From the NCBI GenBank assembly GCA_045635905.1, contig JAZTWN010000055.1, positions 1,894-65,893 on the forward strand: a stretch of 64,000 nucleotides of DNA, in the 5' to 3' direction. Below the pieces are notes generated by a model. That model had not been told where the DNA came from. It saw only the letters and a program-made list of their open reading frames with translations, and made no database searches. Shown here in pieces: positions 4,550 to 56,612 of this stretch. Source of the stretch: Acutalibacteraceae bacterium (GTDB taxonomy: Bacteria; Bacillota; Clostridia; Oscillospirales; Acutalibacteraceae). The number at the start of each line of letters is the position of its first letter. The stretch's first letter is position 1. A program made the translations under genes and the position numbers.

Positions 4550-4552
4550 AAA

Positions 4553-5485: not shown

Positions 5486-5486
5486 T

Positions 5487-7968: not shown

Positions 7969-7991
7969 ATTATTCTCCTTTCATAAAAGAT

Positions 7992-10084: not shown

Positions 10085-10086
10085 AA

Positions 10087-11406: not shown

Positions 11407-11419
11407 AATATCAATCCTC

Positions 11420-12538: not shown

Positions 12539-12550
12539 AAAAACTCCGCG

Positions 12551-13255: not shown

Positions 13256-13256
13256 T

Positions 13257-19710: not shown

Positions 19711-19731
19711 CTGATTTTTCCGTTTCTGAAT

Positions 19732-21249: not shown

Positions 21250-21250
21250 A

Positions 21251-22072
21251 TCATTTTCCCACAATCACAATCAGAATAGTGTGACCCTTTTCCCCTCTGT
21301 CATCGACTGCATAATAGTGAACAATATAAGTACCCTCTTTGTTAACGTTGAGATTTGTATCAACAGTAACGTCATCAGTAATATCGTCCTCGTTATAATC
21401 AACCGCACTGACAATAAACTGCTCGGGATCGGTTTCCTCGCCCTTATCGATATAAAGAATGTAATCTGACAACTCAATCTCGGGAGCAGAAAGACTTCTT
21501 TTTTCAACTATGAGAGGAAATGAGATATTCGCCGTATCGCCCTTTGAGTTTGTTGCGGTAGCATCAATCGTAAAAACACCCTCGGTGGCACTTGCATAAT
21601 CGTTTGACGTAAGTATAAGATTACCGTCGATATTTCCGTCAAAGCAATCAGTTACACTTATTGCATTTTTAAGATTAACCGTTTCATAAATCGAATAACA
21701 TAAAGATCTGTTGAGTACGTATTTCGGTGATTCATAATCTGTATATTTAACCTTTCTGACTGCCGTTGCCACATGGTTATCAGCGTCACAAACCGCATAA
21801 GTAACCTTGCAGATACCGGGCTTTATAAAAGTAGACACAGACTCAACAATTAACTTTGAGGTAAGGTCACCGTCCTTCTCATCAAATGCGGTTACACCGT
21901 CAAGAAAATCCGAATCCTTCGCCGAAACGCTAAGCTCAAGCACGTCATCCTCCAGAGTTATCACGGGAAGAGTGGTATCTGTTGACATCAGATTTGTAAT
22001 ATATGTATATCCGAACACAGCAGTCACAGCTATAAACACGACTATGACGGCTATTCTATAGATTTTCATCAT
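21251..22072 (-). CDS. N-terminally membrane-anchored protein with tandem bacterial Ig-like (DUF5011/HYR-like) repeats, function unknown
   Basis: MMKIYRIAVIVVFIAVTAVFGYTY signal-anchor. Two repeats of the type GVTAFDEKDGDLTSKLIVES ... KVTYAVCDADNH and VSAVDYNEDDITDDVTVDTNLNVNKEGTYIVHYYAVDDRGE follow. The track start is TTG. I chose the ATG at 22072, downstream of GAGGAG. Confidence 0.5.
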   Translation of the reverse strand: MMKIYRIAVIVVFIAVTAVFGYTYITNLMSTDTTLPVITLEDDVLELSVSAKDSDFLDGVTAFDEKDGDLTSKLIVESVSTFIKPGICKVTYAVCDADNHVATAVRKVKYTDYESPKYVLNRSLCYSIYETVNLKNAISVTDCFDGNIDGNLILTSNDYASATEGVFTIDATATNSKGDTANISFPLIVEKRSLSAPEIELSDYILYIDKGEETDPEQFIVSAVDYNEDDITDDVTVDTNLNVNKEGTYIVHYYAVDDRGEKGHTILIVIVGK

Positions 22073-22094
22073 AAAATTTTCTCTCCTCAAAAAA

Positions 22095-22826
22095 TCAATA
22101 AGCTATTACATCCTTGTTTTCAATTACACACAGGGCATTTTTTTCAAAAAGCACCTCAGCGTAATCAAAGGAATAATTTTCAGCAACAAATTCAAACGCC
22201 TCACCAAGATACGGAGTTCTGCGATAAGGACTGTGTGCATCACTTGCAACAAAATCAGCATACGCTCTGTCAAGCACTCTTTTTGCAGCTTCATAAGCTG
22301 AACGCCCGAAGCTGCCCTGCAGACTGCCCTTATTCAGCTGAAGCAGACAGCCCATATTCCTGAGCTTTATTACAGCCTCCTCATCCTCACAGAAAAATGC
22401 ATAGCGTTCAGGATGAGCAACTATTGGCTTGTAGCCCTCTGCAAGCAATCTTTTGAGCTTATGGTAAACAGATGACGAATGCTCATAAAAATCGAACTCA
22501 ACAAGAGGATATAAGGACTTATTCAGAGTTATAAGCTTCCCCTCGGAAAGAAGACTCATAAAGCCCTCGTTACAGAAAATTTCCTGACCGGGATAAAGAC
22601 TGACGTCACATCCACGCTGACTGAGCCTTTCGTTAAGCTGATTTATCATCAAATCGAATTCCGGCTCCCACATATTCCTATAAGTTCCGGGAACGTTACA
22701 GTGCGGAGTAGCTATAATTTTTTCAGTTCCGCCCTTGAAGGCAAGAAGAGCCATTTCAACGGATTCTTCAGCACTTACAGAGCCATCGTCAAGACCGTAC
22801 AAAATATGACAATGAATATCAATCAT
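22095..22826 (-). CDS. Capsule tyrosine-protein phosphatase, PHP family (CpsB/YwqE type)
   Basis: MIDIHCHILYGLDDGS N-terminus, plus ATPH and SDAHS metal-binding motifs, 243 aa. RBS GGGGAGGTG 6 nt upstream. Confidence 0.9.
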   Translation of the reverse strand: MIDIHCHILYGLDDGSVSAEESVEMALLAFKGGTEKIIATPHCNVPGTYRNMWEPEFDLMINQLNERLSQRGCDVSLYPGQEIFCNEGFMSLLSEGKLITLNKSLYPLVEFDFYEHSSSVYHKLKRLLAEGYKPIVAHPERYAFFCEDEEAVIKLRNMGCLLQLNKGSLQGSFGRSAYEAAKRVLDRAYADFVASDAHSPYRRTPYLGEAFEFVAENYSFDYAEVLFEKNALCVIENKDVIAY

Positions 22827-24262: not shown

Positions 24263-24538
24263 TCAGACCAACAGATTCAACTCTTTTAATTGTCCAATAA
24301 AAGCCGTAACGTCCTCACGTGCTTCATTTTCAGAAACAGAAAATTCTGACGTAATTTCGCGGACTATTTCATCAATATTTTTTTCAGTCTGAAGCGACTG
24401 CCATATAGCCGCACTGACAGAATTCAGCACAATAAGCTGAGAAGGATTTTCCGTATTGCTCACGGAAATCGCAAGATACTCCCCTGCGACCTCACGCAGA
24501 ATGAAGCCGCTTCTGACTCTGAATTTTTCATCAGACAT
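24263..24538 (-). CDS. PqqD-family peptide chaperone (RiPP recognition element)
   Basis: MSDEKFRVRSGFILREVAGEYLAISVS...LIVLNSVSAAIWQSLQTEKNIDEIVREITSEFSVSENEAREDVTAFIGQLKELNLLV shows the PqqD pattern (beta-strands, then LNxxxxxIW, then D(V/I)xxFlxxL). I chose the ATG at 24538 (GGGGTGA 5 nt upstream) over the track start. Confidence 0.8.
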   Translation of the reverse strand: MSDEKFRVRSGFILREVAGEYLAISVSNTENPSQLIVLNSVSAAIWQSLQTEKNIDEIVREITSEFSVSENEAREDVTAFIGQLKELNLLV

Positions 24539-24643
24539 AATATCACCCCATAAGAATAATAGCACATTTATTTTTCACATACAACAAAATTTGCAAAAAT
24601 ACAAAAAAAGTCTGAATTTTACAAAATTTTAACAAATGTCGGG

Positions 24644-24672
24644 TTGACATAATATGATAGTAGTATTATAAT
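24644..24672 (+). promoter_or_regulatory. Perfect-consensus sigma70 promoter (TTGACA-17-TATAAT) driving the HprK-like/rSAM/giant/peptide operon
   Basis: TTGACA at 24644-24649, a 17-nt spacer, and TATAAT at 24667-24672, which is 31 nt upstream of the ATG at 24704. Confidence 0.65.
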
Positions 24673-24703
24673 ATCAAATTATAATATATAGGATTGTGGG
24701 TTA

Positions 24704-25516
24704 ATGGACAAATTTTATGATATCTGCAACAGAATAATTAAAATTGACTCTCCGTATTTCCCCGATGCGGCTATAACGCACGATGAATTTCTTGCCAATG
24801 TCGCAACACCCGATATATGTATTACAGTCAGAGCCGATGACTTTTTACCCGAAAAAGCCCGATTCGGTAGCACTGATAATATTTTCCGCTATCATCCGAT
24901 GGGAACAGAGGAAGGCAGCCTCACGGTATATGACAAAAGTAATCACCGTAGTAGTGAAACGTTCGTCGTGAAGAAGAATATGAAGGTTACTCTTGATGAG
25001 CGCTATTTCTGGAGCAGCATTTCATTTGCATCAATAATGCTTCAGGAAAAAATTCTGTTTTTCCACGCATCATTCATTGAGATTAACGGTGAAGGCATTA
25101 TTTTTACTGCTCCGTCAGGGACAGGGAAAAGCACTCAGGCAAGACTGTGGCAGGAGCACAAGGGCGCTAACGTCATAAACGGTGACAAGGCAGGAATTTT
25201 ACTGCAAGACAAAAGGGCGATTGCATGCGGAGTTCCCTTCTGCGGAACAAGCGGAATATGCAAAAACAGAAGTGTTCCGCTGAAAGCAATTGTTCTGCTC
25301 AGTCAAGCAAAACAGAATACCGTGTGCGAAATAAACGGTGCGGCGGCAATAGCACCGCTGATGCAGAACGTTCACCTCGACCTCGCGGCAGCAGATGATC
25401 GGCTTGCTTGCATTGACCTGCTCATTGAGCTTCTCGGAAACACGGCTGTACTGCAGCTCGGATGCACGCCCGACAAATCGGCAGTTGACACACTTGCCGG
25501 ATATCTCGGGATGTAA
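24704..25516 (+). CDS. HPr-kinase-like P-loop protein (HprK C-terminal domain homologue)
   Basis: FHASFIEINGEGIIFTAPSGTGKSTQARLWQEHKGANVINGDKAGI aligns with the HprK/P core pattern H-G-x-x-V...G-x-G-V-L-I-x-G-x-S-G-x-GKS...L-V-x-DD. 270 aa. Confidence 0.7.
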   Translation: MDKFYDICNRIIKIDSPYFPDAAITHDEFLANVATPDICITVRADDFLPEKARFGSTDNIFRYHPMGTEEGSLTVYDKSNHRSSETFVVKKNMKVTLDERYFWSSISFASIMLQEKILFFHASFIEINGEGIIFTAPSGTGKSTQARLWQEHKGANVINGDKAGILLQDKRAIACGVPFCGTSGICKNRSVPLKAIVLLSQAKQNTVCEINGAAAIAPLMQNVHLDLAAADDRLACIDLLIELLGNTAVLQLGCTPDKSAVDTLAGYLGM

Positions 25517-25532
25517 AAAGGAGGGGTGCTTA

Positions 25533-26648
25533 TTGGAAATTAATTACGATTTACTGCTGAGCAGAATGTTTATTAATGCCGAAGCAAACGGAGTGCCTCT
25601 CGGAGCAACCTTTGAGCTGACGGCCGACTGTCCTCTTAACTGTAAGATGTGCTACATTCATCAGAAGAATTGCCGACAGGCGGATAAGCTTCGCGAGAAG
25701 GATACCGATTGGTGGCTCAATCTTATTGATAAGGCAAAGAAAAAAGGAGTTTTTCTTATTCTTCTTACAGGCGGTGAGCCGCTTATGAGGAAGGATTTCA
25801 AGGAAATATACGTTGCCTGTAAGCAAGCAGGCTTTATGGTTTCCGTAAACACAAACGGAGTGCTTATAGACGACGAAATAATTACACTTTTTACAAGCCT
25901 TCCGCCGCAAAGAGTCAACGTCACTCTGTACGGCACGTCGGCTGAAACGTATAAAAGCCTGTGCGGCAGCGCTGAAGCCTACAACAAGGTTATGACCGCA
26001 ATAGCAAGGCTTAAGGAAGCGAAAATTAACGTCAAGCTGAATTATTCGGTAACACCGCATAACAGATGCGATTGCGAATCGGCTCTCAGCTTTGCAAAAA
26101 ACGAGAGCTTGAAAATGCAACCCGTCACCTACATATATCCCCCTGTAAGAAGCACGGGTGAGGCAGTAAGACTCAGCGCGGAGGATGCAGCAATGGAGCA
26201 TTTTCTGTGGCAAAGACGACTGCTTGGTGATGCGGATATGCTGGAATACGCAAAAGCTCAGCTATCTCCCGATAAAACGGAATCCGAGGATCCGGAATGC
26301 GGTGAAAAAATCAATTGCAGAGCGGGACTTTCAACCCTATGGGTGACCTTTGACGGTTATATGCTCCCCTGCGGTATGATGACAACACCAAAAATTGAAA
26401 TTAAGGATTTTGACGAAGCGTGGCAGTATATACGCCGCGAACGTGAAAATATAATTCTTCCGAAGCAGTGTACCACCTGTGGAGACAGAAAAATCTGCGA
26501 TATATGCGCAGCTGTGGCTTACGCTGAAGCAGGAGAATACGGCGGTGTTCCCCGTTACGCCTGTAAAAAGGCAAAGGAATACAAAAAGCTTTGTAAAAAC
26601 TTCATTGAAGAAATGAATTCTATGTTTTCAGGAGGTTCAGAAAAATGA
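25533..26648 (+). CDS. Radical SAM enzyme with C-terminal SPASM domain (peptide/protein-modifying maturase)
   Basis: CX3CX2C cluster (CPLNCKMC), GGEPL SAM-binding motif, and SPASM cysteines (C-x17-C with GYMLPC, then CTTCGDRKICDIC, and a later C). The TTG start at 25533 is preceded by AAAGGAGGGG at 6 nt. The track ORF start at 25395 would overlap the HprK-like gene. Confidence 0.9.
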   Translation: MEINYDLLLSRMFINAEANGVPLGATFELTADCPLNCKMCYIHQKNCRQADKLREKDTDWWLNLIDKAKKKGVFLILLTGGEPLMRKDFKEIYVACKQAGFMVSVNTNGVLIDDEIITLFTSLPPQRVNVTLYGTSAETYKSLCGSAEAYNKVMTAIARLKEAKINVKLNYSVTPHNRCDCESALSFAKNESLKMQPVTYIYPPVRSTGEAVRLSAEDAAMEHFLWQRRLLGDADMLEYAKAQLSPDKTESEDPECGEKINCRAGLSTLWVTFDGYMLPCGMMTTPKIEIKDFDEAWQYIRRERENIILPKQCTTCGDRKICDICAAVAYAEAGEYGGVPRYACKKAKEYKKLCKNFIEEMNSMFSGGSEK

Positions 26649-29600
26649 AAACTACAAAAAAACTTCTGGCATTTATGCTTTCTGCATTGATGATTTTCTC
26701 CGTGGCTATCGTCCCCGGAGCAGACCTTTCAATGTTTGCAGTTGAAGCAGATGCAGCAATTACCCTCGGCGGTATAACACAGCAGAGAGTTGTTTCAAAT
26801 TATGAAAGCATCTACAGATCATACCAGGAAAGATTTTTTATGGGTGCAGAATCAAACGAACCCACAAATTTTGTTATTCCCGGTCTTTCATCAAGTAACG
26901 ACTATACTCCTCAGGGTATGACGTACTGGGAGGAAAAAGAATGGATTCTTATATCTGCATACGATGCAAGCGGAAGCGGTAAGCACTCCGTTATTTATGC
27001 TCTCGACGCAGTTACAACAGATTTCGTTGCTCTTTTCAAGATTCTCAACGCTGACGGCAGTGTAAACACAAGCCACGGCGGCGGTATTGCTGCATCAAAA
27101 TACAATTTCTACTATGCAGATACAGGCTCAAATATAAGTTATATTCCCCTTTCAGAAATGGACGTTGCAAAGGGCACTGTAAAGGAAATTAAACTCCGCG
27201 GCAGCATTAACTGCAGTGGTGAGCTTGGCGGCGCTGCAACATCATACTGTTGCTATGAAGACGGTGTTCTCTGGGCAGGTAACTTCTACTACAACGAAGA
27301 TGACCGTTATGCTACAAGTGCTCATTCTGCAGCAAACAGTATGATTGTGGGGTATGAGCTTCACGGTAATTCCTCTGCAGAAGAGTGGTATTATCTTTCA
27401 ACCAACTATAACGTTATCAATCTTAATATTGACTCATCTACTCAGCAGACATGGACCAACAATAGCGGTGTATCAATGAATTTTACCACAATGAATACAA
27501 ACGGTGCTAACGTTGAAATCAGAGGTACAATCACAAACACCACCGGCAACACATTTGGCGAAGTTACCCAGAATTTCTGTTCCTTCAAGCTTACTGAAGG
27601 TGTAAAATATAAGCTTGAATTCATAACCGATAACTATCAGATGAGCGACCTTTATATGTTTGCTCCAAACGGTACTCACTGTGACGTAAAGCTTGCTCAA
27701 AGCACAACAATTACAGACCTCGGAAACGGTAAATATCACTATCAGATGATTTTTACCGCAGGTCTCAAGCCCAATGGTGCCGACAGCTCATGGCCCACTA
27801 CACAGAGCACAAACGGCAGCTATACCGGTACATATACAATGCGTTTCGACCAGGATAGTGTAGCTGCAGGCGAGCGCAAATTTAATATGACTGACATTTC
27901 AATTTCGAAATTCGCTGAAGCTTCAGGCTTCACTCCTGATTCAAACTACGAAGGTGTAGGTTGCGCTGGTAATCCCACCTATGTTATCTTATTCCCCGGC
28001 ATAGATAAAATTCAGTATGCAATGGTTTTCAAGGGCAAGATCTATATCAGCCGTTCCTGGAAGCGCACATCAGGCACTAACCATACAAGAGAGCTTATGA
28101 TCGGTGATATTGATATATATTCGCCCGGAGCAGAAAGCTATTCAATCAACGGAAGAACACGTCCCTGCACTGTTCTTAACGTCAATAATATGACCCGTTT
28201 CGGCGGCGACAACGGCGCATCAAATCTTAACCAGATGTTCTATATGGGCGAGGCTCTTTGCGTTATAGAAGACTATCTTTACATGTTCGGCGAAGGCGCA
28301 GCATGGGCTTACAACGGCAAGGAAAGTAACAACAAGTGTGATGAGCCCATTGACGTAATCTGGAAAATTGACCAGCATTTTCTTTTGGACGAGAAGCGTC
28401 TTATTGAAGATACAAAAGCCATTTACTATGAAAAGGTTACAGATATATCAGGTATCAATTCAGAAGACGAATATATCATTGTTCATAAATCCCCTGAAAA
28501 GGATCCCATAACACAGAAAAACATTTTGTATGCAATTGATGCATTCGGCGGTTATGGTGGACACAAGCTTCCCAAGCAGGATGCAGGCTCTCAGCCAAAC
28601 ACCGGTGACTCTATGGGTATCGTTGGCTATCCTATAACCAACTACTCTATCGACGAAGAAAATGAAAATATCATTTATCTTTCAGAAGAGGATGCATCAA
28701 AGCTTTCCATACGTTGGGAAATCGAGCCCTCAAATGCAACACACGATAAAGCACAGGTAAAGATCACAAACAAGGACCTTTATTATTCCACCAATGAATA
28801 TCTCTATTTCGGAAGCCGTCTTTTTGCAATGACAACCACAGCAAGAAAAAACCTTGACAGAATATATCTTGAAGAATTTGCAGCAAGTGAAGGTAATTTT
28901 GTTCTTTACTATTTAGGCGGCACAACTGAAGAGGCAAAACCATATTATCTCTGGTGTAATGACGGACGCGATCAGGATTTTATTGCCGCATATACAGAAT
29001 ATTATTCCAATCACGGCAAAACCGGCTATGTGCCTAAATATCACGGTCTTGAAGAGGTTCCCGGCACCTTCCACAGTGACGCATTCCACTATCAGACTGA
29101 CCAAAATACCGGAACATTAATAGGCTCAGTTACTGATGTTGAAATGGGCTCAATAAGTATTTATAAGCGTGTAAATGATGAGTATTCAACAACATCCGGC
29201 AGTCGAGTTTATACTGATATGTTTGCTGAGCTTCAGGCAGACGGAACATACACAATTGACATTGAATCCTATGCAATCAGTAACCTTCAGTACCAGAAGG
29301 TTAACGAAAGACCTACCGACTTTATTTTTGTTCTTGACGCATCAGGCTCTATGACCAACAACACTGATGCACGTGGATACCACACAGAAATAAACAATTG
29401 GTCAGCTCTGAAAATGAAACAAGCAGCTAATAGCAACGATATTTCAGAAAACGGCAACTACAACAGGGAATGGACAAGTAATTTCTATTACAAATTACCC
29501 GATGGTGAATTTGCCCGTATTTCTGTTGCTGTCAATAAAGGTTCAGACGGAACTTACTCAAGAGATATCTGGCTTTGGTGTAAGCATCCCGTAACAGGCA

Positions 29601-32600
29601 GATGCTATAAAATCTCTCAGAATGGATACCTTGTTGTGAACAACTGTACCGGAAATCCTTCAACAGACAGTTCAAGTAGACTTACAGAGGCAATGTATCT
29701 TGCGAACCCATCTGCTTATGGCTATGCAAGTTCATCAGAAATCCTTGCAGAGGCCTCATCTGATAAAAACAGAACGGACTATCATAGTTCAAGAAACTCC
29801 CAAGATAAAAGACGTGACTATGAGGTTTTAAACTACAAGTATACTGATGGCTACGGTTTTACAAGAGCAACATATTACTCTTATGGTGAGTGCTACAGAC
29901 TCTTAGCTATGCAGCAGGCTGTTGAAAAACTTACCTACAAAATTGAAAATGAAGTTAAAAACACCGGTTTGCAACACAGAATAGCTATCGTACAGTTTGG
30001 TTCAGATGGAAATGAAAGCTATAGCAATACCGGCATGTACAAAAACACAAGCACGGCAATGGTTCAGTACAGTAAAGAAAATCCAATTTCCGCGACAAAT
30101 TATCAAAATGCATTCTTTACATCAAGTCAATTTGCAACTGTAAGAAGCATCATCAATAATATTAAGACATGGGACAGAGACCATGACACTTATTCAAACT
30201 TTGGATTTGAAATGGCAAATAATATTGTAAAAAATTCTGATGCTGACTATCTTGCAGACGGCAATAGAAGTGCTTGTATCATTATGATCACAGACGGTGT
30301 TCCTGGTCTTGGCAATAATAACCCAAGCTCAGCAATAAGTACAGCAAATGCAGCAATAGATATGTCCCATCAGTCAAAAGAAAGTGGCGCATACGTTTAT
30401 AGTGTTCTTATGGGTAGTGACTCCTGTTCCGGTTTCAGCATGGATAACTATATGGACTATGTTTCCTCTGAATTCATTGACTCAACAAGCCTTTCTTCTT
30501 CAGGTGACAGAAACGTTGCTGACATCGATTATCGAATTAACGTTCCCACCGGCAGCACCTTCAATATCACAAATCTCGTTAATGATATGTTCAATTCAAT
30601 CACAAAGAACAGCACTAATGCTATGGTAAGGCTTACTGCTGATTCCGTGCTTCGTGAACACGTTACTGATGCCTTTGATATCAGCAATGCAACAATAGAG
30701 GCTTATACAGCAGATTGCGAATATGACGGCATCGGAAGACTCGGATTTGCACAAGAAACCCTTGACTCATCTATAACCGTACTTACAGATGAATTAGACG
30801 TTAATATAGTTAAATCGACCGGATTTGACTATACAGAAAAGTATATCAGCAAAAATCACCCGGGCAAAAAGCTCATCATAAGACTTACCGGTGTTGAAGC
30901 AAATGAAAACGCTGAGCTTCTTAATACATCCATCAACGAGCACGACACAACTGCCATCTATGAAAACATTTCAAATATGACAGCCAACAAACCGTTTAAG
31001 AAGTTCCCGACGGAAAGCTTTACTATTCCCGAGTATACGTACGTGCTCGACTACGGAATTAATATGTATGACTCTGATATCAACGGTACTCTCGTTTCCG
31101 TTGACAGTGAGCCGAGAAAGCAGAATTCTTATTCAACCGTACTTGATACCGACAACATCGGAATTACATTTACAAATGCTCAGCAGGATATGCTTTATTC
31201 ACTCAAGCCTCAATCTGACGGTGCTGAAGAAGATTCAAGAGGCTACTGTCTGATTCAGCGTGATAACGGAACATACGACTGGTTCAGAATCAACATTCTT
31301 CCTGCATCAAACGTTTACTTTGAAGAATTCACCGGAACAAAGCAGACAACAACAGAAAATGCAAATTATGCTAATTGGCACCAGGATGGAACCAAAGAAA
31401 GCTTCACTCAGAATCTTACCAATGAAAATGATGTATACGGCTTTGACAAGGAATATTCAAAAAGCACTTCTGCTTTTTCGTATGGTTCTGCATACAAGGC
31501 TGAGGTAAATTCTGACATTATAAGAAGTGAAACTATTTCCTTCAGCTACACAGGCACAGCAGTAGATATCGTTGCTTCCTGCGGCAGCAAAACCGGTATT
31601 TATATCGTAACAATTAAAAACAGTAATGGTGTTGAAAAAGCATACATTGTTGACACATACTTTACCGACAACGGATATCTCAGCAGCACAAATCAGCTTA
31701 ATCAGGTACCCATTGTTCACCATGAAAATTCAGGCGGCTACGACACATACACTGTTGAGGTCACATCAGTTTACCTTGCATACATTGTAGGTGGAAGAAG
31801 CTCAACATATGCACTGGACCGTTTCGGCAACGAGAATGTTTCTTTCTTCTCAACAGACATTTCCGATGAAGCAAAGGAAGCAGTTCTTTCATTTGCAGAT
31901 ATGGATTACCTTCTTGACGAAAACGTTGAGGTTATCTTCTGCGACGAAAATTCAATCTTCAACGGCGGTACAGGTGCTGAAGGCACAAATGGCGGAATGT
32001 CAACATTTGCACTTGGCTCATCAAGCACAGAAACATCAACAGGTCTTGTAAACTATTTTGACGGTTACAGAATATATAATCCTCTCGGTGATAACGAAGG
32101 CGAATATCCTCAGTCAGAACAGGGGTCTGTGTATTACAACATTATAAATTCGCTCGCAACACCAGATTCAATACTTAACGGAACCAGTGATAAGTTTGTC
32201 GGATACATTGTCGGTTCCGGCAGCACTAACGAAATAAGCTTTTCTGACTACGAAAGCAAGGGTCCTGCTAATGAGGTTTATCTCACAAAAGGCAACGCTA
32301 TTGCTTTCACCGCACCTGAAGGCTATGAAAGAGTTATGGTAAGCCTTCGAGCAGTCAACGGTGCAACAAAAGCAAAAATCGGTAGCAAGGAATTTACAGT
32401 AAGCAGCACAACTGAAATGTATTATGATATTACTCCTTACATTGAGGATAACACCGTAGCAATTCTTAATAGCGGCTCAGGCATACTTGCAGTAAATAAC
32501 ATCAAGCTTGTCAGCGGTCACGTAGTTGAACCTATGGCAGTATTCAACATGTCCAGAATCAGAATGATGATGGCTGCACCTGCAACAGAGGTTGAACCCA

Positions 32601-32815
32601 ATGTTCCCGAGGAAACAACAAACGAAAATATTTCCTGGCCCGAGGTTGATCCCGTTCCCGAAGGCACTGCTCCGGAAGATGACGGTGTTGAAGATAATGT
32701 ATCAGAAGATACAGATTCAACAGATGGCATTATCGATACACTCAAGTCAGTGCTCAATAAGATTATTGCATTCTTTAACAAGGTATTTACCTTGTTAAAA
32801 TCACTTGCTGCGTAA
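26645..32815 (+). CDS. Giant (2,056 aa) secreted protein with a vWA/MIDAS domain and a C-terminal acidic linker plus amphipathic helix
   Basis: Signal peptide MKTTKKLLAFMLSALMIFSVAIVPG...AVEADA. vWA MIDAS DFIFVLDASGSM (from 29318) with RIAIVQFGS and IIMITDGVPG strands. GGAGG RBS 9 nt upstream, and an ATGA overlap with the rSAM stop. The rest of the protein has no motif I recognise. Confidence 0.8.
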   Translation: MKTTKKLLAFMLSALMIFSVAIVPGADLSMFAVEADAAITLGGITQQRVVSNYESIYRSYQERFFMGAESNEPTNFVIPGLSSSNDYTPQGMTYWEEKEWILISAYDASGSGKHSVIYALDAVTTDFVALFKILNADGSVNTSHGGGIAASKYNFYYADTGSNISYIPLSEMDVAKGTVKEIKLRGSINCSGELGGAATSYCCYEDGVLWAGNFYYNEDDRYATSAHSAANSMIVGYELHGNSSAEEWYYLSTNYNVINLNIDSSTQQTWTNNSGVSMNFTTMNTNGANVEIRGTITNTTGNTFGEVTQNFCSFKLTEGVKYKLEFITDNYQMSDLYMFAPNGTHCDVKLAQSTTITDLGNGKYHYQMIFTAGLKPNGADSSWPTTQSTNGSYTGTYTMRFDQDSVAAGERKFNMTDISISKFAEASGFTPDSNYEGVGCAGNPTYVILFPGIDKIQYAMVFKGKIYISRSWKRTSGTNHTRELMIGDIDIYSPGAESYSINGRTRPCTVLNVNNMTRFGGDNGASNLNQMFYMGEALCVIEDYLYMFGEGAAWAYNGKESNNKCDEPIDVIWKIDQHFLLDEKRLIEDTKAIYYEKVTDISGINSEDEYIIVHKSPEKDPITQKNILYAIDAFGGYGGHKLPKQDAGSQPNTGDSMGIVGYPITNYSIDEENENIIYLSEEDASKLSIRWEIEPSNATHDKAQVKITNKDLYYSTNEYLYFGSRLFAMTTTARKNLDRIYLEEFAASEGNFVLYYLGGTTEEAKPYYLWCNDGRDQDFIAAYTEYYSNHGKTGYVPKYHGLEEVPGTFHSDAFHYQTDQNTGTLIGSVTDVEMGSISIYKRVNDEYSTTSGSRVYTDMFAELQADGTYTIDIESYAISNLQYQKVNERPTDFIFVLDASGSMTNNTDARGYHTEINNWSALKMKQAANSNDISENGNYNREWTSNFYYKLPDGEFARISVAVNKGSDGTYSRDIWLWCKHPVTGRCYKISQNGYLVVNNCTGNPSTDSSSRLTEAMYLANPSAYGYASSSEILAEASSDKNRTDYHSSRNSQDKRRDYEVLNYKYTDGYGFTRATYYSYGECYRLLAMQQAVEKLTYKIENEVKNTGLQHRIAIVQFGSDGNESYSNTGMYKNTSTAMVQYSKENPISATNYQNAFFTSSQFATVRSIINNIKTWDRDHDTYSNFGFEMANNIVKNSDADYLADGNRSACIIMITDGVPGLGNNNPSSAISTANAAIDMSHQSKESGAYVYSVLMGSDSCSGFSMDNYMDYVSSEFIDSTSLSSSGDRNVADIDYRINVPTGSTFNITNLVNDMFNSITKNSTNAMVRLTADSVLREHVTDAFDISNATIEAYTADCEYDGIGRLGFAQETLDSSITVLTDELDVNIVKSTGFDYTEKYISKNHPGKKLIIRLTGVEANENAELLNTSINEHDTTAIYENISNMTANKPFKKFPTESFTIPEYTYVLDYGINMYDSDINGTLVSVDSEPRKQNSYSTVLDTDNIGITFTNAQQDMLYSLKPQSDGAEEDSRGYCLIQRDNGTYDWFRINILPASNVYFEEFTGTKQTTTENANYANWHQDGTKESFTQNLTNENDVYGFDKEYSKSTSAFSYGSAYKAEVNSDIIRSETISFSYTGTAVDIVASCGSKTGIYIVTIKNSNGVEKAYIVDTYFTDNGYLSSTNQLNQVPIVHHENSGGYDTYTVEVTSVYLAYIVGGRSSTYALDRFGNENVSFFSTDISDEAKEAVLSFADMDYLLDENVEVIFCDENSIFNGGTGAEGTNGGMSTFALGSSSTETSTGLVNYFDGYRIYNPLGDNEGEYPQSEQGSVYYNIINSLATPDSILNGTSDKFVGYIVGSGSTNEISFSDYESKGPANEVYLTKGNAIAFTAPEGYERVMVSLRAVNGATKAKIGSKEFTVSSTTEMYYDITPYIEDNTVAILNSGSGILAVNNIKLVSGHVVEPMAVFNMSRIRMMMAAPATEVEPNVPEETTNENISWPEVDPVPEGTAPEDDGVEDNVSEDTDSTDGIIDTLKSVLNKIIAFFNKVFTLLKSLAA

Positions 32816-32827
32816 GGAGGTATAAGT

Positions 32828-33061
32828 ATGAAAACATATCAGAAGCCTACAATTATGCTGTCATCAACAGCATCTACAGCAAGTACTTTAGGAAGCTGCA
32901 TGGAAAAGGTTGATGCAGAGCTTATTCAGCAGATTACCGGCCTTCCTATCACTAACGATTCTTTTGGCATGAATGAAGCATGCAAGAAACCTGTACCGAT
33001 TGAGTTTTATTGCAAATTCACATCTGGTGAATTAGGTGCTCTTCAGGCATTCATTTCCTAA
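32828..33061 (+). CDS. 77-aa cytoplasmic Cys-containing small protein, candidate rSAM/PqqD substrate (RiPP-precursor-like)
   Basis: AAGGAGG lies exactly 7 nt before the ATG, and a terminator follows immediately. It has no signal peptide or TM helix. Cys at positions 24, 52 and 62, an S/T-rich stretch at 12-23, and a C-terminal Ser. It is the last gene of the rSAM operon. Confidence 0.6.
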   Translation: MKTYQKPTIMLSSTASTASTLGSCMEKVDAELIQQITGLPITNDSFGMNEACKKPVPIEFYCKFTSGELGALQAFIS

Positions 33062-33078
33062 AAAATCAAACAAAAAAA

Positions 33079-33110
33079 GCAGAGGGGCAAATGCTCCTCT
33101 GTTTTGTTTT
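33079..33110 (+). terminator. Rho-independent terminator of the rSAM/giant/peptide operon
   Basis: GCAGAGGGG-CAAAT-GCTCCTCTG hairpin followed by TTTTGTTTT. Confidence 0.7.
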
Positions 33111-33113
33111 ATG

Positions 33114-33150
33114 CAAAAAAATCGGAGGGGTTTGAGCCCTCCGTTTTTTA
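33114..33150. terminator. Bidirectional rho-independent terminator (ends the TraX operon on the minus strand)
   Basis: AAAAAAAT-CGGAGGG-GTTTGAG-CCCTCCG-TTTTTTA: a 7-bp GC-rich stem flanked by an A-tract and a T-tract. It sits 2 nt from the TraX stop codon. Confidence 0.7.
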
Positions 33151-33151
33151 T

Positions 33152-33835
33152 TCAGAAAAACAGGATTTTTATAAGATAAATCACTGCAAGATGCAAGGGA
33201 TAGAAAACGTAGAAAAGATATTTCAGCTTCAGCCTTCCTCGTTTTCCGTTATACAGAGCAATCGGCACAAGGGAAAGCAGAGAATACCACTGTATGCCGC
33301 CAAGGTCAATGGAAAGAAATACAAGCATAACAAAGGCTGCAACAAGCTTTAACGGCTTTTTCGGTGCAAAATATACTATTACAGGCAACAAAAGGCCCGA
33401 AAAACCGTAATCAATCTGAAAGCCCTTTACAAGCACCGGCATTCCCAGACATAGAAAAATTACCGCTGACGCATCAATTGCCACAAGCAGTGCGGATGAA
33501 AGATTTTTCTTTTTAATGAAATTATCTATTGCAAAAATCGTCAGAATAGAAAGAGAAAAGGTCACAAGCACATTCTGATAATATGATTTTTCCGCAATAA
33601 AATATACGAGCTGACAGCCCACTGCAAGACCTGCAATTTTCAGGAAATATTGCCGTTTTTTACGGGTATAAAAGCAGCCCTCGGCAATCATAAAAGCAAA
33701 TATGGGGAAAGCAAGTCTGCCGAAAATCTGAAGAAATTCAAGCTGCGGAAAAAGCTCCTTGCCAACGTGGTCGGCAAGCATTGAAAGCACCGCAAGAATT
33801 TTAAGCTGATTGTTTGAAAGTCTTAAATATTTCAT
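33152..33835 (-). CDS. TraX-family integral membrane protein (putative acyl/acetyltransferase)
   Basis: MKYLRLSNNQLKILAVLSMLADHVGK... is the typical TraX N-terminus (LKxxAxxxMxxDH). 227 aa with about 7 hydrophobic helices. ATGA overlap with the upstream gene. Confidence 0.75.
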   Translation of the reverse strand: MKYLRLSNNQLKILAVLSMLADHVGKELFPQLEFLQIFGRLAFPIFAFMIAEGCFYTRKKRQYFLKIAGLAVGCQLVYFIAEKSYYQNVLVTFSLSILTIFAIDNFIKKKNLSSALLVAIDASAVIFLCLGMPVLVKGFQIDYGFSGLLLPVIVYFAPKKPLKLVAAFVMLVFLSIDLGGIQWYSLLSLVPIALYNGKRGRLKLKYLFYVFYPLHLAVIYLIKILFF

Positions 33836-35193
33836 AGTGATTTTATGTTATTTTCAAATTCTGCGAAGAACTTTTCAAGAATAGCGCTGTCATTTTCGTT
33901 GCCGCGTACACATATTGACGCTGAAAGTGCGCCGCCGATTGAAAGGGCGGTCATAACTGCACAGGGCTTGTTTTTTGCCGCTCCTGCAGTAAAGGCGTCA
34001 AAGGGACCCGATTGCCCCAGCACAAAGTCTGCAGGCTCAAGTTTTCCAACGTTGCTGACAGACATCTGAGGGTTATTGTAAAAAAGCTTTACAAGGCTCT
34101 CTGCCTGAATATACGTCATCGCTTTGTATGCAAAATTCAGAAGCGGCAGCCCGTGAAGACCTAAAAACTCGTCATTCTTAAGCGCCTTCATTGCATCACG
34201 CACAAGAAGCAGAGTTTCCTTAAGGTCACTCCCCTTCTTATCAAGCACACAATACATAAACGACACGTGATTCGTATAGCCTATGGTTGACAAATCCTTG
34301 ATATGACGTCTGAGGTCAGTAGCACAGGCAACACTTAAACGGTCAGTTGTCCTCACGTCTGCAATTTTACCAAACGCATCAATATAGGAGGCAATCAGCA
34401 GGTCCGTCACCGTTGCACCTACCGATTTTGCATATAAGCAGGCTCGTGAAAAGGAATCCGCATCAACACGGCAGGAGGAAATTACTACCTTTTCCTCACC
34501 GTTTACGGGGGTAAACGGGAATTTTATCTTTGAACGGGGTGAGGCATTGGCTATCTGCATTTTAGCCTTTTTTGCAGTCTTTTTATCAAAGCCCTTATAC
34601 ACCTCGGAATATTTACGGGAGCCGACAGAGAAATTTACGGGAGAAATACCGCAAAGAAGAAAATCCGTGTAATTTTTACAGAAATCACTCCAGAACATTT
34701 TAAATCCGCCACCGTCAAAGCACATATGATTCCATATAAAAAGCACGTAGGTTCTGCCCTCGTAAAAGTAAACACCTATATTCATCTGAACGTTACTTTT
34801 CAAGGGAATTTCACGCGAGAAGAACTCTTCCTTAGCCTTTTTTATATCATCCACCTGACGGATATCGAGAAAATCCGTTATAGCATAATCGGCAACCTTC
34901 CAATAGGGTGCAACAGGGTTATTTATAACCTCAGAGCGCAGAATTGTTACGGTTTCAAGGCAACAAACAGCAACAGTCTTAAAGGCTTCGGTATCAACAA
35001 TAAAATCGTAATCCATTTCAAAGCGCGCAAGACGGTCCATATAATTTCTGCACATAAGGTTTACCTTGTCGTACATTTCAGTGGGAAGCATACGCTTTCC
35101 GGTAACGGGATGTGCATTACGATATGCCTGCAGGTCTGCAATCACCTTTTCGGAGGTTATCCCCTTACTGCGGATATATTCATTATAATCCAT
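33832..35193 (-). CDS. Stand-alone condensation-domain-like acyltransferase (HxxxDG active-site motif)
   Basis: IWNHMCFDGGGFKMFW contains HxxxDG, as in NRPS C-domains / PapA5 / WS-DGAT. The 453-aa size fits a two-lobed CAT-like fold. RBS GGTGA 6 nt upstream. Confidence 0.6.
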   Translation of the reverse strand: MDYNEYIRSKGITSEKVIADLQAYRNAHPVTGKRMLPTEMYDKVNLMCRNYMDRLARFEMDYDFIVDTEAFKTVAVCCLETVTILRSEVINNPVAPYWKVADYAITDFLDIRQVDDIKKAKEEFFSREIPLKSNVQMNIGVYFYEGRTYVLFIWNHMCFDGGGFKMFWSDFCKNYTDFLLCGISPVNFSVGSRKYSEVYKGFDKKTAKKAKMQIANASPRSKIKFPFTPVNGEEKVVISSCRVDADSFSRACLYAKSVGATVTDLLIASYIDAFGKIADVRTTDRLSVACATDLRRHIKDLSTIGYTNHVSFMYCVLDKKGSDLKETLLLVRDAMKALKNDEFLGLHGLPLLNFAYKAMTYIQAESLVKLFYNNPQMSVSNVGKLEPADFVLGQSGPFDAFTAGAAKNKPCAVMTALSIGGALSASICVRGNENDSAILEKFFAEFENNIKSL

Positions 35194-35205
35194 ACAAATT
35201 CACCG

Positions 35206-36894
35206 TTATTCTGCAATATGTGAGAAAAAGAAGTCCCTCTTCTCGTCATTATCGATAACCTTAATGGGCTTTACCTGATTAAGATTTGCACCGCGCTTTC
35301 TGAGAACCTCTCGGTAGTCGTCATAGGTTCCGTGACGCAAAAACTTAACCTCGGGATGTCCCAGCGCACCGCTCTTTATAAGAGGCTCTACGGAAACATT
35401 ACCCTTGCAGAGCATTTCTTCAAACACCTGGGCATACCTTGCTTTTTTGTCTTCGGCTACAGGCTGCGCAGTTTCAAGAAGTAAAACGTAGTGTCCGGGA
35501 GAGGTGGAGCGATCGGGATAAATACTGTATCCGATATACAAATCGTCCATTTCATTGGAAAGATTTTCTACCATTTCATCAAATGCCATCTGACTTATCT
35601 TTTCGCCACTTATATTTGCAATCTGATTAAGGCGGTAACAGAAGGTAATTTTAGGCACCTGATGATAATATCCCGTGCATTTTACAACATCTTCAATTCT
35701 GTAGCGGTAGAAGCCGCTCATATTGGTAAGAATAAGCTCATATTCCTTACCGGGCTCAAGATCCTTGATTGTAAGAAGGTTATCGTAGCCCTCCTGCTCA
35801 ACGGGTCGGAATTCATAGAAGCCGTTCTGAGGAAGCATAACGTATTCAAAGGAGTTAAGCTCCATAGGAACTGCCATAAAAGCCTCGGTTGCGGTATAGC
35901 CAAGATAATGAATGGGCATATCCTCACCTATATATCTGCGAAGCTTTTTTGCATAAAGTGAAAGAGCGCCCGTTCCCATACCGTAAAGCCATTCAACCCT
36001 GGGAAGAATTCTCGGAACGATGGGAGATTCGTCAAAGCCCTTTCTGAACTCATTACGAAGCTCCTCAGCTCTCTTGGGCATAGGCTTTAATTTTCTTTCC
36101 AATTTCTTTCTTATATGCGCGGGAACGTTTACGCTTTCGTTGATAATCCCCTTTTCGATATCATCGCAGAGCATTTCCCAGTTTTCCTCCATATAGAAAA
36201 ACATTGATTCGAGCGTTGTGATGAATATTGTACCGAGATAGCTTGTTTTCGTGTTGATAAGCGCAAATCTCAGTTTAAGATAATGCATATCCATATCAGA
36301 GCCGTCGGGGAAAAGCACCTCCTTCGGGGAGGTAGCAAAAATAGGAACAAGGGGACGGATATTAAGAAGCGGAATTGAAGAAAGACAGCTTATTGTGCCG
36401 CCCTTCATCTTACGCCACGATGTTTCTGCAGTAAGAAGTCCCTTCTGAGGAGGAAGTGGTCTTCCCTTTCTTATAAACCATTTTACGGCGCAGCCTATGG
36501 GTGCGGAAAAGCCAAAGCACTGTGCAACCCACTCTGCCCAGAATGAAAGAGGAACAAGCTTTGATTTACCGGTGCTTCCCGAGCTTTCTGTAAAGCGTCT
36601 GACTGGAAGATTTGTGATAAGCCCTCTTTCCCCCTCTGCCATTCGCCATACATATTCGTCATAGTCGGCATAGGTGGAAAGGGGAACTATTTTCTGATAG
36701 TCCTCTATTGATTTTACCTTGTTGAAATTATGAATCCGTCCGTACTCGGTGGACTTATTCCAGCGCATAAGTCTTTTTACGGTTTTCTCCTGTAATTTAA
36801 GACCTCTGCGAGAATATATATTGAGCTTTATGTGCTCACAGGTACCGACTAAGCCGCCGTATGAGGAAAGTATGTATCCTAATATATTAAGCAT
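35206..36894 (-). CDS. GH3 (auxin-responsive promoter) family adenylate-forming acyl-acid amido synthetase homologue
   Basis: FTESSGSTGKSKLVPL (GH3 P-loop-like SSGT(T/S)xGxxKxxP), GFYRYRIEDVVKCTGYYHQVPKITFCYR (GH3 YRxGDxV...P.. motif), and C-terminal NQVKPIKV (QxKxPR-like). 562 aa. Confidence 0.8.
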   Translation of the reverse strand: MLNILGYILSSYGGLVGTCEHIKLNIYSRRGLKLQEKTVKRLMRWNKSTEYGRIHNFNKVKSIEDYQKIVPLSTYADYDEYVWRMAEGERGLITNLPVRRFTESSGSTGKSKLVPLSFWAEWVAQCFGFSAPIGCAVKWFIRKGRPLPPQKGLLTAETSWRKMKGGTISCLSSIPLLNIRPLVPIFATSPKEVLFPDGSDMDMHYLKLRFALINTKTSYLGTIFITTLESMFFYMEENWEMLCDDIEKGIINESVNVPAHIRKKLERKLKPMPKRAEELRNEFRKGFDESPIVPRILPRVEWLYGMGTGALSLYAKKLRRYIGEDMPIHYLGYTATEAFMAVPMELNSFEYVMLPQNGFYEFRPVEQEGYDNLLTIKDLEPGKEYELILTNMSGFYRYRIEDVVKCTGYYHQVPKITFCYRLNQIANISGEKISQMAFDEMVENLSNEMDDLYIGYSIYPDRSTSPGHYVLLLETAQPVAEDKKARYAQVFEEMLCKGNVSVEPLIKSGALGHPEVKFLRHGTYDDYREVLRKRGANLNQVKPIKVIDNDEKRDFFFSHIAE

Positions 36895-36917
36895 TAATTT
36901 TCACCCTATATTTTTTA

Positions 36918-45636: not shown

Positions 45637-45655
45637 TTCTTCCACCTCTTATGCA

Positions 45656-56434: not shown

Positions 56435-56612
56435 ACAGTTATCTCCTTTTTGTAAGTTCTGTATTTTCCCGGACAAGCAAAGAAAAGCTGTTATCAGAAT
56501 TTTTCTCTTACTTTCAAGGGGTAGGATGATATAAAATCACTATTTTATATTAACATATACGCGTAATAAATACAATAACAATTTTTCTCCGGCAAAATAT
56601 ACCTTGTACGGC

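Follow-up and report, generated by a model that had tools for sequence, protein, structure and literature searches.

A conserved gene set of gut or rumen Clostridia pairs a 77-residue, three-cysteine protein ending in serine with a radical-SAM (rSAM) enzyme, a leader-binding PqqD-family protein, an HPr-kinase-like protein and a giant secreted protein, beside capsule genes. It looks like a new, rSAM-bearing branch of the recently described phosphorylated-peptide systems (linear polyphosphorylated peptides, LPPs, and paeninodin-type clusters), although no chemistry has been shown.

Organization of the locus

The locus was examined within a window of 64 kb, i.e., the whole stretch of DNA analyzed. 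All genes reported in the preliminary description were found at their places, and its observation is thereby confirmed. The features of the locus and of the adjoining capsule operon are as follows.

16489-18204 (-): MsbA-like ABC exporter, 571 aa, tentative candidate exporter of the modified peptide
18223-22826 (-): capsule-regulatory unit comprising a CpsB phosphatase (22095-22826), a surface Ig-like protein (21251-22090) and two Wzz/P-loop (CpsCD-like) proteins (19732-21264 and 18223-19710)
24263-24541 (-): PqqD-family RiPP recognition element (RRE), 92 aa from ATG 24541
24644-24672 (+): consensus sigma-70-type promoter TTGACA-17-TATAAT, overlapping a minus-strand TTGATA-17-TATTAT site at 24677-24649
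24704-25516 (+): ScmC-like/HprK-like P-loop protein, 270 aa, Walker A APSGTGKST at 25109-25135
25533-26648 (+): rSAM/SPASM enzyme, 371 aa, CX3CX2C at 25629-25652, SPASM Cys region at 26298-26564
26645-32815 (+): giant secreted protein, 2,056 aa, with a signal peptide (26645-26755), a vWA-like region with an insertion (about 29312-30304) and a variable middle
31286-32614 (+): C-terminal module of the giant protein, aa ~1548-1990
32720-32809 (+): C-terminal amphipathic helix of the giant protein, aa 2026-2055, after an acidic linker
32828-33061 (+): 77-aa small protein/precursor with a Y4-x-x-P7-x-I9 leader motif, C24, C52, Y61-C62-K-F-T-S66 and C-terminal S77
33076-33105 (+): intrinsic terminator closing the plus-strand unit

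The promoter is the only 12/12 match in the window, against 0.02 expected, and the terminator is strong, with a 13-bp stem followed by a T-run (dG -20.8 kcal/mol, z = -4.96). The four plus-strand genes are tightly packed, so that one transcription unit, as proposed in the preliminary description, is plausible. The rSAM gene starts at TTG 25533 behind AAAGGAGG, its stop overlaps the start of the giant ORF (ATGA), and the small ORF lies behind AAGGAGG-7-ATG.

The domain assignments were tested by profile searches, as had been suggested beforehand, and they hold with corrections. The PqqD protein matched Pfam PqqD (E=1e-15), and its best NCBIfam hit was lasso_PqqD_Bac (E=7.6e-10), below the cut-off of that model. 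The HprK-like protein gave ScmC as its best NCBIfam hit (E=2.5e-8, below cut-off) along with weak HprK hits, and its homologues carry PF27840 ScmC. A profile of 13 homologues found HprK/P 1ko7 as the top PDB hit (E=3e-4), and H121, G141-K142-T144, N159-G160-D161, G181 and S183 are invariant in them; the HprK-type His, P-loop and Asp are thus kept. The rSAM protein matched Radical_SAM (E=4e-24) and possesses CX3CX2C at C33/C37/C40 and a conserved SPASM-type Cys set (C262..G275x4C280, C313x2C316x5C322x2C325, C344), although Pfam's SPASM model did not hit. That the rSAM might group with a housekeeping family such as anSME or a cofactor maturase had been named in advance as grounds for rejecting the cassette; it groups with neither, all NCBIfam hits being far below their cut-offs. 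ScmC, PqqD and rSAM all score below the curated cut-offs of every named family, which weighs against the reading proposed below. In the giant protein, which has a Sec-type N-terminus, the vWA assignment is sub-threshold (VWA_2, 22.8 bits against a cut-off of 27), although a DxSxS motif is present at aa 898.

Conservation of the cassette and its giant partner

To assess whether the layout recurs, homologous loci (numbered with the prefix L) were compared. ScmC-rSAM plus a giant protein occur in all 14 related loci with rSAM of at least 37% identity and enough flank. The small ORF lies directly 3' of the giant gene in the window, L001, L002, L004, L006, L008, L010, L011, L012 and L085-L089, and PqqD lies next to the cassette in L001, L002 and L085-L088. 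An ScmC-like ORF accompanies nearly every rSAM of this group. In a reverse search starting from the small ORF, tblastn found the C-terminal module of the giant protein directly upstream in 10/10 informative metagenome loci, i.e., those with at least 500 bp upstream; nine had CpsB-Ig-like-Wzz directly downstream, and L104 carries giant C-module-small ORF-ScmC-rSAM. The arrangement is conserved across loci whose proteins are only 25-55% identical, with rearranged gene order. The claim that the giant gene is hard-wired into the unit thus survives the refutation test set for it in the preliminary description, and a chance juxtaposition of unrelated genes in this one genome, for which no evidence was found, is refuted by the synteny data.

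The C-terminal module of ~450 aa is the only part shared by the giant proteins of nearly all related loci (blastp to 15 giants), whereas the N-terminal 1,500 aa are shared with only some relatives. No Pfam family matched the module. An AF2 model was mostly β-strand (pTM 0.66), and only generic jelly-roll fold matches were obtained (TM < 0.25). The same modeling predicted the C-terminal helix (498-527 of the modelled segment), and comparable hydrophobic or aromatic-rich C-terminal tails are seen in most other giants.

We considered whether the giant protein, rather than the small one, is the rSAM substrate, being modified in the cytoplasm before Sec export, as anSME does with sulfatases, with the small protein as an accessory such as a chaperone or assembly factor. 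The overlap of the rSAM stop with the giant start, the presence of a giant with a conserved C-module in every close locus and the lack of a leader peptidase in this clade would fit this possibility. However, the module has no conserved Cys or other obvious target motif, its invariant residues being N, D, R, Y, E, G, P and L, and more distant relatives have the same enzyme trio and Cys/Ser-terminal precursors with no giant at all (for example, L017-L021, L024, L025, L033, L041 and L055). As the small protein also carries the RRE-type leader motif, we regard this alternative as unlikely.

The small protein family

The small protein defines an uncatalogued family, without a Pfam or NCBIfam match, of 66 cluster representatives in 1.84 billion proteins. 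Of these, 63 end in Ser, against a 9.6% background (p about 4e-60), and 52 have exactly three Cys. P7, C52, C62, K63 and S77 are invariant in the 64-sequence alignment, and Y4, K6 and F46 are at least 90% conserved. The family has an N-terminal YxxPxΦ motif, as in lasso and LPP leaders. Despite the 64-sequence alignment, AF2 gave no confident fold (pLDDT 59), which fits a substrate or partner-dependent peptide. The proposal that the 77-aa ORF is the candidate peptide substrate holds up, whereas the terminal Ser, the lasso-type leader motif and the capsule linkage had been missed in the preliminary description.

The same design appears beside more distant rSAM/ScmC pairs (26-31% identity) in other phyla, where short precursors of the form MKK.W.KP.L..L...EE.VL..CK...C...C....S mostly have three core Cys and a terminal Ser. 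Ser-ending is enriched near the rSAM (Fisher p = 4e-5). The leader regular expression used to find distant precursors was chosen by us, which partly pre-selects the motif, though not the terminal Ser or the Cys count. Some ScmC-positive loci have precursors that do not end in Ser, namely L021 (second peptide), L022, L023, L026 and L076.

Alternatively, the small ORF could encode an ordinary secreted protein or lipoprotein, lipidated at Cys24 and with the other Cys in disulfides, that partners the giant protein without any link to the rSAM enzymes. The first Cys sits at position 22-25, a typical lipoprotein signal length, about 10 of 62 family members have a hydrophobic stretch before it, and the window peptide reads LGSC. 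Still, the best 10-residue hydropathy before this Cys has a median of 1.3 (1.0 in the window peptide), and most members lack a lipobox (SSC, TNC, NNC, DTLC). Since the family co-occurs with rSAM/ScmC wherever flanks allow and its N-terminus matches the RRE-bound leader motif, this reading is unlikely.

Capsule linkage, exporter and leader peptidase

The CpsB-Ig-like-Wzz unit, identified from Pfam and precomputed domains, travels with the cassette; it lies next to the cassette or the small ORF in L001, L002, L004, L011, L014, L018, L019, L021, L085, L087, L090-L096 and L098. This strong linkage, together with that to sugar-nucleotide enzymes, could suggest that the trio acts on the capsule pathway, for example through rSAM sugar chemistry and a sugar or lipid kinase, the giant and small genes being mere neighbours. 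We consider this improbable, as PqqD-family proteins are peptide-binding RREs (PMC5067487), L086, L088 and L089 keep the five genes outside capsule loci, and the conserved three-Cys/terminal-Ser precursors track the enzymes across phyla.

The preliminary description stated that the trio appears without a leader peptidase or peptidase-ABC exporter; for the ABC exporter, this is not quite right. The exporter encoded in the adjoining capsule operon (ABC_membrane + ABC_tran; top NCBIfam hits MsbA-related) is 39-53% identical to exporters adjacent to rSAM/ScmC/PqqD genes in L015, L019, L021, L087 and L104. Relatives of the cassette, including more distant ones, carry a SipW-like peptidase (20 loci), an NTP_transf_5 transferase (4 loci) and MsbA-like exporters, matching the LPP core set. 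The absence of the peptidase here is thus a clade-specific loss rather than a feature of the whole family.

Proposed function

We hypothesize, with a probability of roughly 0.6, that the locus encodes a RiPP-type maturation system whose substrate is the 77-aa protein. What the analysis itself demonstrates is the conserved gene linkage, the conserved precursor-like family with three Cys and a terminal Ser, and the conservation of catalytic motifs in the enzymes; the mechanism that follows is inferred from these. PqqD would bind the N-terminal Y4xxP7xI9 motif, corresponding to the [Y/W]xxPxΦ leader motif of lasso and LPP precursors, and present the protein to the enzymes. The SPASM rSAM would crosslink the three conserved Cys (C24, C52, C62), most likely as thioethers as in ranthipeptides or QhpC. 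The ScmC/HprK-like protein would phosphorylate a Ser, with C-terminal S77 as the prime candidate by analogy to the paeninodin-type kinases, since HPr-kinase homologues phosphorylate the C-terminal Ser of lasso precursors (PMC8498205, PMC10368454). S23, at Y+19 like Ser3 of LPP cores, is the alternative, and HprK-like RiPP kinases do not always target the C-terminal Ser, BsfK and LppK using Ser3. No modification has been observed, and the crosslink type, acceptor residues and phosphosite are all inferred.

In this view, the system is an rSAM-bearing offshoot of the LPP/paeninodin-type module (RRE, HprK-like kinase, SipW-like peptidase, NTP transferase and MsbA-like exporter, embedded in capsule loci), in which this clade lost the leader peptidase and the NTP transferase, and the precursor gene became fixed directly behind a giant Sec-secreted protein with a conserved C-terminal β-rich module. 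The modified, probably uncleaved, small protein most likely works together with that module at the cell surface or capsule. With no leader peptidase at this locus and the only exporter candidate 6.5 kb away in another operon, how a cytoplasmically modified protein would meet a Sec-exported partner is unexplained by this model.

Comparison with known systems

The interpretation in the preliminary description is partly supported, as its statement that no described system has this architecture needs qualifying. The RRE, HprK-like kinase and MsbA-like exporter set in capsule loci, with a YxxPxΦ leader, is the core of LPPs (lppA-K-B-S-D-N, Paenibacillus alginolyticus; PMC13381572, Nat Commun 2026), in which LppK polyphosphorylates a Ser and the leader motif is [Y/W]xxPx[V/L]. 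LPP clusters have no rSAM enzyme, the term being absent from the paper, and their precursors have variable C-termini and no described Cys pattern. The window clade lacks the SpI peptidase and the NTP transferase and adds a SPASM rSAM, a three-Cys/terminal-Ser precursor and a giant secreted protein. LPPs were described in Bacilli, whereas the present system is found in Clostridia.

The same core is found in paeninodin-type phosphorylated lasso peptide clusters (PadeA/B1/K; ThcoK, SyanK; pseudomycoidin; PMC8498205), which share a PqqD-like B1 RRE, the best NCBIfam hit of the window PqqD, a YxxPxL leader motif, an HPr-kinase homologue and a precursor ending in a Ser that is phosphorylated. Here, there is no lasso cyclase (C) or B2 protease, the core is about 55 aa rather than about 20 aa, and an rSAM/SPASM enzyme is present instead.

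The trio of PqqD, HprK-like protein and SPASM rSAM is itself catalogued as the SynChlorMet cassette (NCBIfam TIGR04248-04251: ScmC, ScmD, ScmE, ScmF), with ScmE giving the best full-length alignment of the window rSAM. However, all scores are far below the equivalog cut-offs (33.6 against 125, 29 against 100 and, for ScmE, 88 against 400 bits), and the second rSAM, ScmF, is absent. No precursor or product has been reported for that cassette, and none was found in the literature searched.

Finally, ranthipeptide and sactipeptide maturases (PapB, AlbA, SkfB, StsB) and QhpD-QhpC share the logic of a SPASM rSAM plus RRE acting on Cys-containing precursors. PapB scored 52 bits against a cut-off of 340, other hits were similarly low, none of those systems is known to have a kinase, and no QhpA/B homologues occur here. 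QhpC, a small three-thioether subunit that ends up inside a larger secreted enzyme, nevertheless offers a useful analogy for a small protein paired with a giant one.

Gene content of the locus

Annotation of the region showed that it contains what the preliminary description had reported: a PqqD-family gene divergent from a tightly packed plus-strand unit that is preceded by a promoter and closed by a terminator. The features are as follows.

24263-24541 (-), PqqD-family protein of 92 aa
24644-24672 (+), promoter TTGACA-17-TATAAT
24677-24649 (-), promoter-like site TTGATA-17-TATTAT
24704-25516 (+), P-loop protein of 270 aa
from 25533 (+), radical-SAM (rSAM) enzyme of 371 aa, with a TTG start behind AAAGGAGG
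26645-32815 (+), ORF of 2,056 aa (the giant protein), whose ATG overlaps the rSAM stop
32828-33061 (+), ORF of 77 aa behind AAGGAGG (the small protein)
33076-33105 (+), strong terminator (dG -20.8 kcal/mol, z = -5)
33123-33143, symmetric GC-rich hairpin with T-runs on both strands

The plus-strand promoter is the only perfect match of its type in the 64-kb window, with 0.02 expected. Together with the minus-strand site it forms a face-to-face overlapping arrangement (24629-24677); the two divergent units could compete for RNA polymerase. The hairpin located just after the cassette terminator is a likely bidirectional terminator shared with the convergent operon that follows.

Profile searches, which had been proposed in advance as a check of the domain assignments, were run against Pfam and NCBIfam. 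Pfam PqqD matched the minus-strand protein at E=1e-15, and the best NCBIfam hit of this protein was the lasso B1-type chaperone. The best family hit of the P-loop protein was ScmC of the SynChlorMet cassette (E=2.5e-8), with weaker HprK-related hits. A profile built from 13 homologues picked HprK/P (1ko7) as the top PDB match, aligning the conserved His, the GxSGxGKS loop and the downstream Asp. The vWA assignment made for the giant protein in the preliminary description was sub-threshold, although a DxSxS motif is present.

The rSAM enzyme matched Pfam Radical_SAM at E=4e-24 and carries the cluster motif C33-x3-C37-x2-C40, in which C40 is invariant and C33 and C37 are at least 90% conserved among 35 homologues. 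A SPASM-type Cys set (C262..G275-x4-C280, C313-x2-C316-x5-C322-x2-C325 and C344) is conserved across the family, and the full-length alignment to ScmE, PapB and NirJ2 covers this region, while the Pfam SPASM model itself gave no hit. The enzyme scored far below the cut-off of every curated family. Firm grouping with anSME or a cofactor maturase had been named beforehand as an outcome that would speak against a dedicated cassette, and it was not observed: among anSME and the cofactor maturases (AhbD, NirJ, PqqE, MftC, MoaA), the best hit was AhbD with 112 bits against a cut-off of 500, over the N-terminal core only, PqqE scored 74 against 381 and MftC 70 against 265, and anSME was not among the top 25 hits.

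Conservation of the gene arrangement

To assess whether the arrangement is conserved, the neighbourhoods of rSAM homologues were examined. The enzyme has 352 homologues at E<=1e-10. Genomic contexts were retrieved for ten of them, and further close loci came from a scan of species-representative genomes; the related loci are designated here by L numbers. The genome scan was dominated by unrelated SPASM enzymes (L037-L084, about 24% identity, no ScmC), which served only as negative background. All of the retrieved contexts and close loci show ScmC directly 5' of the rSAM gene, and all also show a signal-peptide protein of 1,150-2,660 aa in the same cluster. The nearest named relatives are Acutalibacteraceae, Oscillospiraceae and Lachnospiraceae MAGs.

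The giant proteins differ in their N-terminal and central domains, which include GH20, GH85, GH43-related, Flg_new, Big_3 and SHIRT, and a vWA-like region in the window. They share a single C-terminal region of ~450 aa (aa ~1548-1990 of the window protein), usually followed by an acidic linker and an amphipathic C-terminal helix. A Foldseek search with the model of this C-terminal part returned only generic cupin or jelly-roll matches (TM 0.15-0.2), and no function is assigned. No conserved target residue was found in the shared module, which argues against the giant protein being the rSAM substrate, as does the retention of the precursors in relatives without a giant protein.

A homologue of the 77-aa ORF lies immediately 3' of the giant gene in the window, L001, L002, L004, L006, L008, L010, L011, L012 and L085-L089; in L087 it had not been called as a gene. 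A reverse search, starting from the small protein alone and using an alignment of 14 sequences, returned 15 metagenome loci. All 10 with at least 500 bp upstream carry the giant C-module directly upstream, nine carry CpsB, an Ig-like surface protein and Wzz directly downstream, and one (L104) carries giantC-small-ScmC-rSAM. The preliminary description had stated that its cassette would fall if these genes were never adjacent in other genomes; they are adjacent, and chance juxtaposition is excluded. The observation itself is real and conserved.

In the window, two tandem Wzz + P-loop (CpsC/D-like) genes at 18223-21264 (-) follow CpsB and an Ig-like surface protein. This four-gene unit recurs next to the cassette in many loci, also in L011, L014, L018, L019, L021, L087, L091 and L092, and may belong to the same functional system rather than being an ordinary capsule regulator. 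Such linkage could suggest that the enzymes act in capsule-sugar chemistry. However, L086, L088 and L089 keep the five genes outside capsule loci. In L089, a subtilisin-like S8 peptidase (7029-8855, -) lies directly upstream of ScmC, reminiscent of the S8 leader peptidase QhpE of the QhpC/QhpD system; it was seen in this one locus only.

The small protein family

An HMM of the small protein, searched against 1.84 billion representatives, identified 66 clusters of 47-94 aa, 65 of them 65-94 aa long. Of these, 63 end in Ser, against a background of 9.6% for ORF ends in these loci (p about 4e-60), and 52 have exactly three Cys. The conserved columns are Y4, K6, P7, C24, D29, F46, E50, C52, Y61-C62-K63-F64-T65-S66, G70, F75 and S77. 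Neither Pfam nor NCBIfam has a model for the family. AF2 with a 64-sequence alignment gave no confident fold (pLDDT 59, pTM 0.30), and no fold search was run on this model.

The N-terminal Y-x-x-P-x-Φ is the [Y/W]xxPx[L/V/I/F/A] motif that discrete PqqD-like RREs recognise in lasso and LPP (linear polyphosphorylated peptide) leaders (PMC10368454; PMC13381572). The locus combines a PqqD-type RRE with a co-encoded precursor bearing a recognisable leader, though binding was not assayed. An alternative reading, in which the small protein is a lipoprotein unrelated to the enzymes with Cys24 as the lipidation site, is unlikely, as the stretch before the first Cys is too polar in most members and a lipobox is usually absent.

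The wider family and its accessory genes

An ScmC-like ORF accompanies nearly every rSAM down to about 26% identity to the window enzyme. Beside these distant pairs lie short precursors of the type 'MKK.W.KP.L..L...EE.VL..CK...C...C....S', which occur in Desulfobacterales, Nitrospirae, Bacteriovoracaceae, Chloroflexi, Aminicenantes and other Clostridia. Most have three core Cys and a terminal Ser, and Ser-ending is enriched near the rSAM (Fisher p = 4e-5). A second precursor type of 107-116 aa, with two Cys and ending in ...PSWS, ...ISWS or ...TGMS, lies between the rSAM and ScmC/SipW-like genes in capsule loci that have no giant protein (L017 10136-10480, L018 11071-11394, L019 11040-11384). 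Some genomes carry two ScmC copies with separate precursors in one locus (L009 15-2302 and 5643-7894; L011 6056-8133 and 13443-15882; L021 8135-9525 and 9672-12067), and L009 also appears to carry a second rSAM. In L021 one precursor ends in Tyr and the other in Ser, so these may be duplicated systems with different substrates.

The distant loci additionally carry three accessories: a SipW/archaeal-type signal-peptidase-like protein of ~150-190 aa, MsbA-like ABC exporters and, in four loci (L021, L023, L030 and L104), an NTP_transf_5 nucleotidyltransferase. An HMM of the SipW-like accessory found it in 20 related loci, but neither in the window nor in the giant-associated clade, with the exception of L087. 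This locus (3461-13663) looks intermediate, encoding a GH20 giant protein, an uncalled 89-aa precursor (8793-9062), ScmC, rSAM, an MsbA-like ABC exporter, a SipW-like peptidase and PqqD, then CpsB-Ig-like-Wzz; it combines the giant partner with the full LPP-like export and cleavage set.

A tblastn search found no NTP transferase in the window. An MsbA-like ABC exporter is present at 16489-18204 (-), in the neighbouring capsule operon. It is 53% identical to the one in the same position in L021, after two tandem Wzz/P-loop genes, and 39% identical to exporters adjacent to the maturase genes in L015, L087 and L104. As it is not adjacent to the cassette here and is missing from several close loci, these data neither assign it to the system nor exclude it. 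The window lacks the peptidase and the transferase.

Comparison with described systems

The accessory set of the family comprises an RRE, an HprK-like kinase, a SipW-like SpI peptidase, an NTP transferase, an MsbA-like exporter, a [Y/W]xxPxΦ leader and embedding in capsular-polysaccharide loci. This is the core of the LPPs reported in 2026 from Bacilli, in which LppK polyphosphorylates Ser3 of the core and whose biological role is unknown (PMC13381572). The window has the discrete RRE and the HprK-like kinase; direct similarity to LppB or LppK was not computed. Of the LPP precursor leader YxxPxVLxHQxIxFETxxS only the YxxPxΦ part is shared, the HQxIxFET part is absent, and Ser is common but not invariant at Y+19 (31/62), a partial match that points clearly neither towards nor away from an LPP-type leader. 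Paeninodin-type lasso clusters share the RRE and the kinase; their kinases phosphorylate the C-terminal Ser of the precursor, and a nucleotidyltransferase can then glycosylate the phosphate (PMC8498205). Neither system contains a radical-SAM enzyme, and the LPP paper does not mention one. The macrolactam synthetase (C) and B2 leader protease of lasso clusters were not found among the ORFs between 24.2 and 33.1 kb or in the flanking operons examined.

The SynChlorMet cassette of NCBIfam combines ScmC, a PqqD homologue and SPASM rSAMs. The window proteins fall far below its equivalog cut-offs (33.6 against 125, 29.1 against 100 and 88.2 against 400 bits for ScmC, ScmD and ScmE), as do the distant loci tested, and the second rSAM (ScmF) is missing, only one rSAM gene being present in the locus. 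Membership of the PapB ranthipeptide family is likewise not supported, with 52.1 bits against a cut-off of 340. Literature searches on the SynChlorMet cassette and its substrate, on ScmC with radical SAM, on ranthipeptides with kinases and on SPASM with HPr found nothing relevant. The interpretation in the preliminary description was partly supported: the coupling of the enzymes to a giant protein holds, and parts of the gene set are shared with these described systems.

Proposed role of the cassette

Together, our results place the cassette best as a radical-SAM-bearing variant of the LPP/paeninodin-type phosphorylated-RiPP systems, with an unprecedented coupling to giant secreted proteins. 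The gene arrangement and its conservation were observed directly, whereas the mechanism proposed here is deduced from them and from precedent; no chemistry has been demonstrated, and no modified peptide product was measured. In the most likely mechanism, PqqD binds residues ~4-12 of the small protein and the SPASM rSAM crosslinks the three Cys, thioethers being the precedent for this enzyme class. ScmC would use ATP to phosphorylate a Ser. The invariant C-terminal Ser points to S77; S23, at Y+19 like LPP Ser3, is the alternative, but Ser occupies that column in only 31/62 members.

In this view, the clade has lost the leader peptidase and has fixed the precursor gene behind a giant secreted protein with a conserved C-terminal module. 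The product is therefore probably an uncleaved, crosslinked small protein that works with that module at the cell surface or capsule. Export may go through the MsbA-like transporter, which is the weakest step of the proposal. If the small protein stays uncleaved and partners the giant protein, it would be an example of RiPP machinery maturing a structural protein subunit rather than making a secreted natural product.

A further, unlikely possibility is that the crosslinked 77-aa protein is not a diffusible natural product but a RiPP-derived adaptor. Its invariant C-terminal Ser, phosphorylated after crosslinking, would serve as a phosphodiester attachment point for capsule glycan, as in the phosphoglycosylation of pseudomycoidin, while its body would bind the conserved C-terminal module or helix of the giant protein. 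Giant surface enzymes and adhesins would thereby be tethered to the capsule, a new mode of surface-protein anchoring in Gram-positive gut bacteria.

The cassette links SPASM radical-SAM peptide crosslinking, HprK-type peptide phosphorylation (LPP and paeninodin systems, whose biological role is unknown) and giant secreted proteins of gut Clostridia encoded at the head of capsule loci, which have so far been treated separately. It supplies a candidate precursor family, with three Cys and a terminal Ser, for the whole ScmC/PqqD/SPASM group, and gives a concrete handle on what phosphorylated RiPPs in capsule loci are for.

Genes downstream of the cassette

A convergent operon (33152-38072, -) directly follows the cassette and encodes a TraX-family acyltransferase, a 453-aa protein with no family hit but an HxxxDG-like motif (WNHMCFDGGG), a GH3-family amido synthetase and a double-GNAT protein. 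A possible link to modification of the peptide's C-terminus was not examined. A GH3 homologue (44% identity) also lies 2 kb from the cassette in L006.

The large ORFs further downstream were first suspected to encode an NRPS, but Pfam showed dockerin/PMP-repeat surface proteins and glycosidases instead. Two very large dockerin-bearing proteins are encoded at 41545-56476 (-), one of 3,606 aa with Chlamydia-PMP repeats, a right-handed beta-helix and an N-terminal dockerin, and the other of 1,366 aa with Laminin_G_3, Metallophos, Big_2 and a C-terminal dockerin. They are flanked by a GH38 mannosidase (38084-41392) and a fucosidase (56662-58137), which suggests a cellulosome-type surface-protein neighbourhood.
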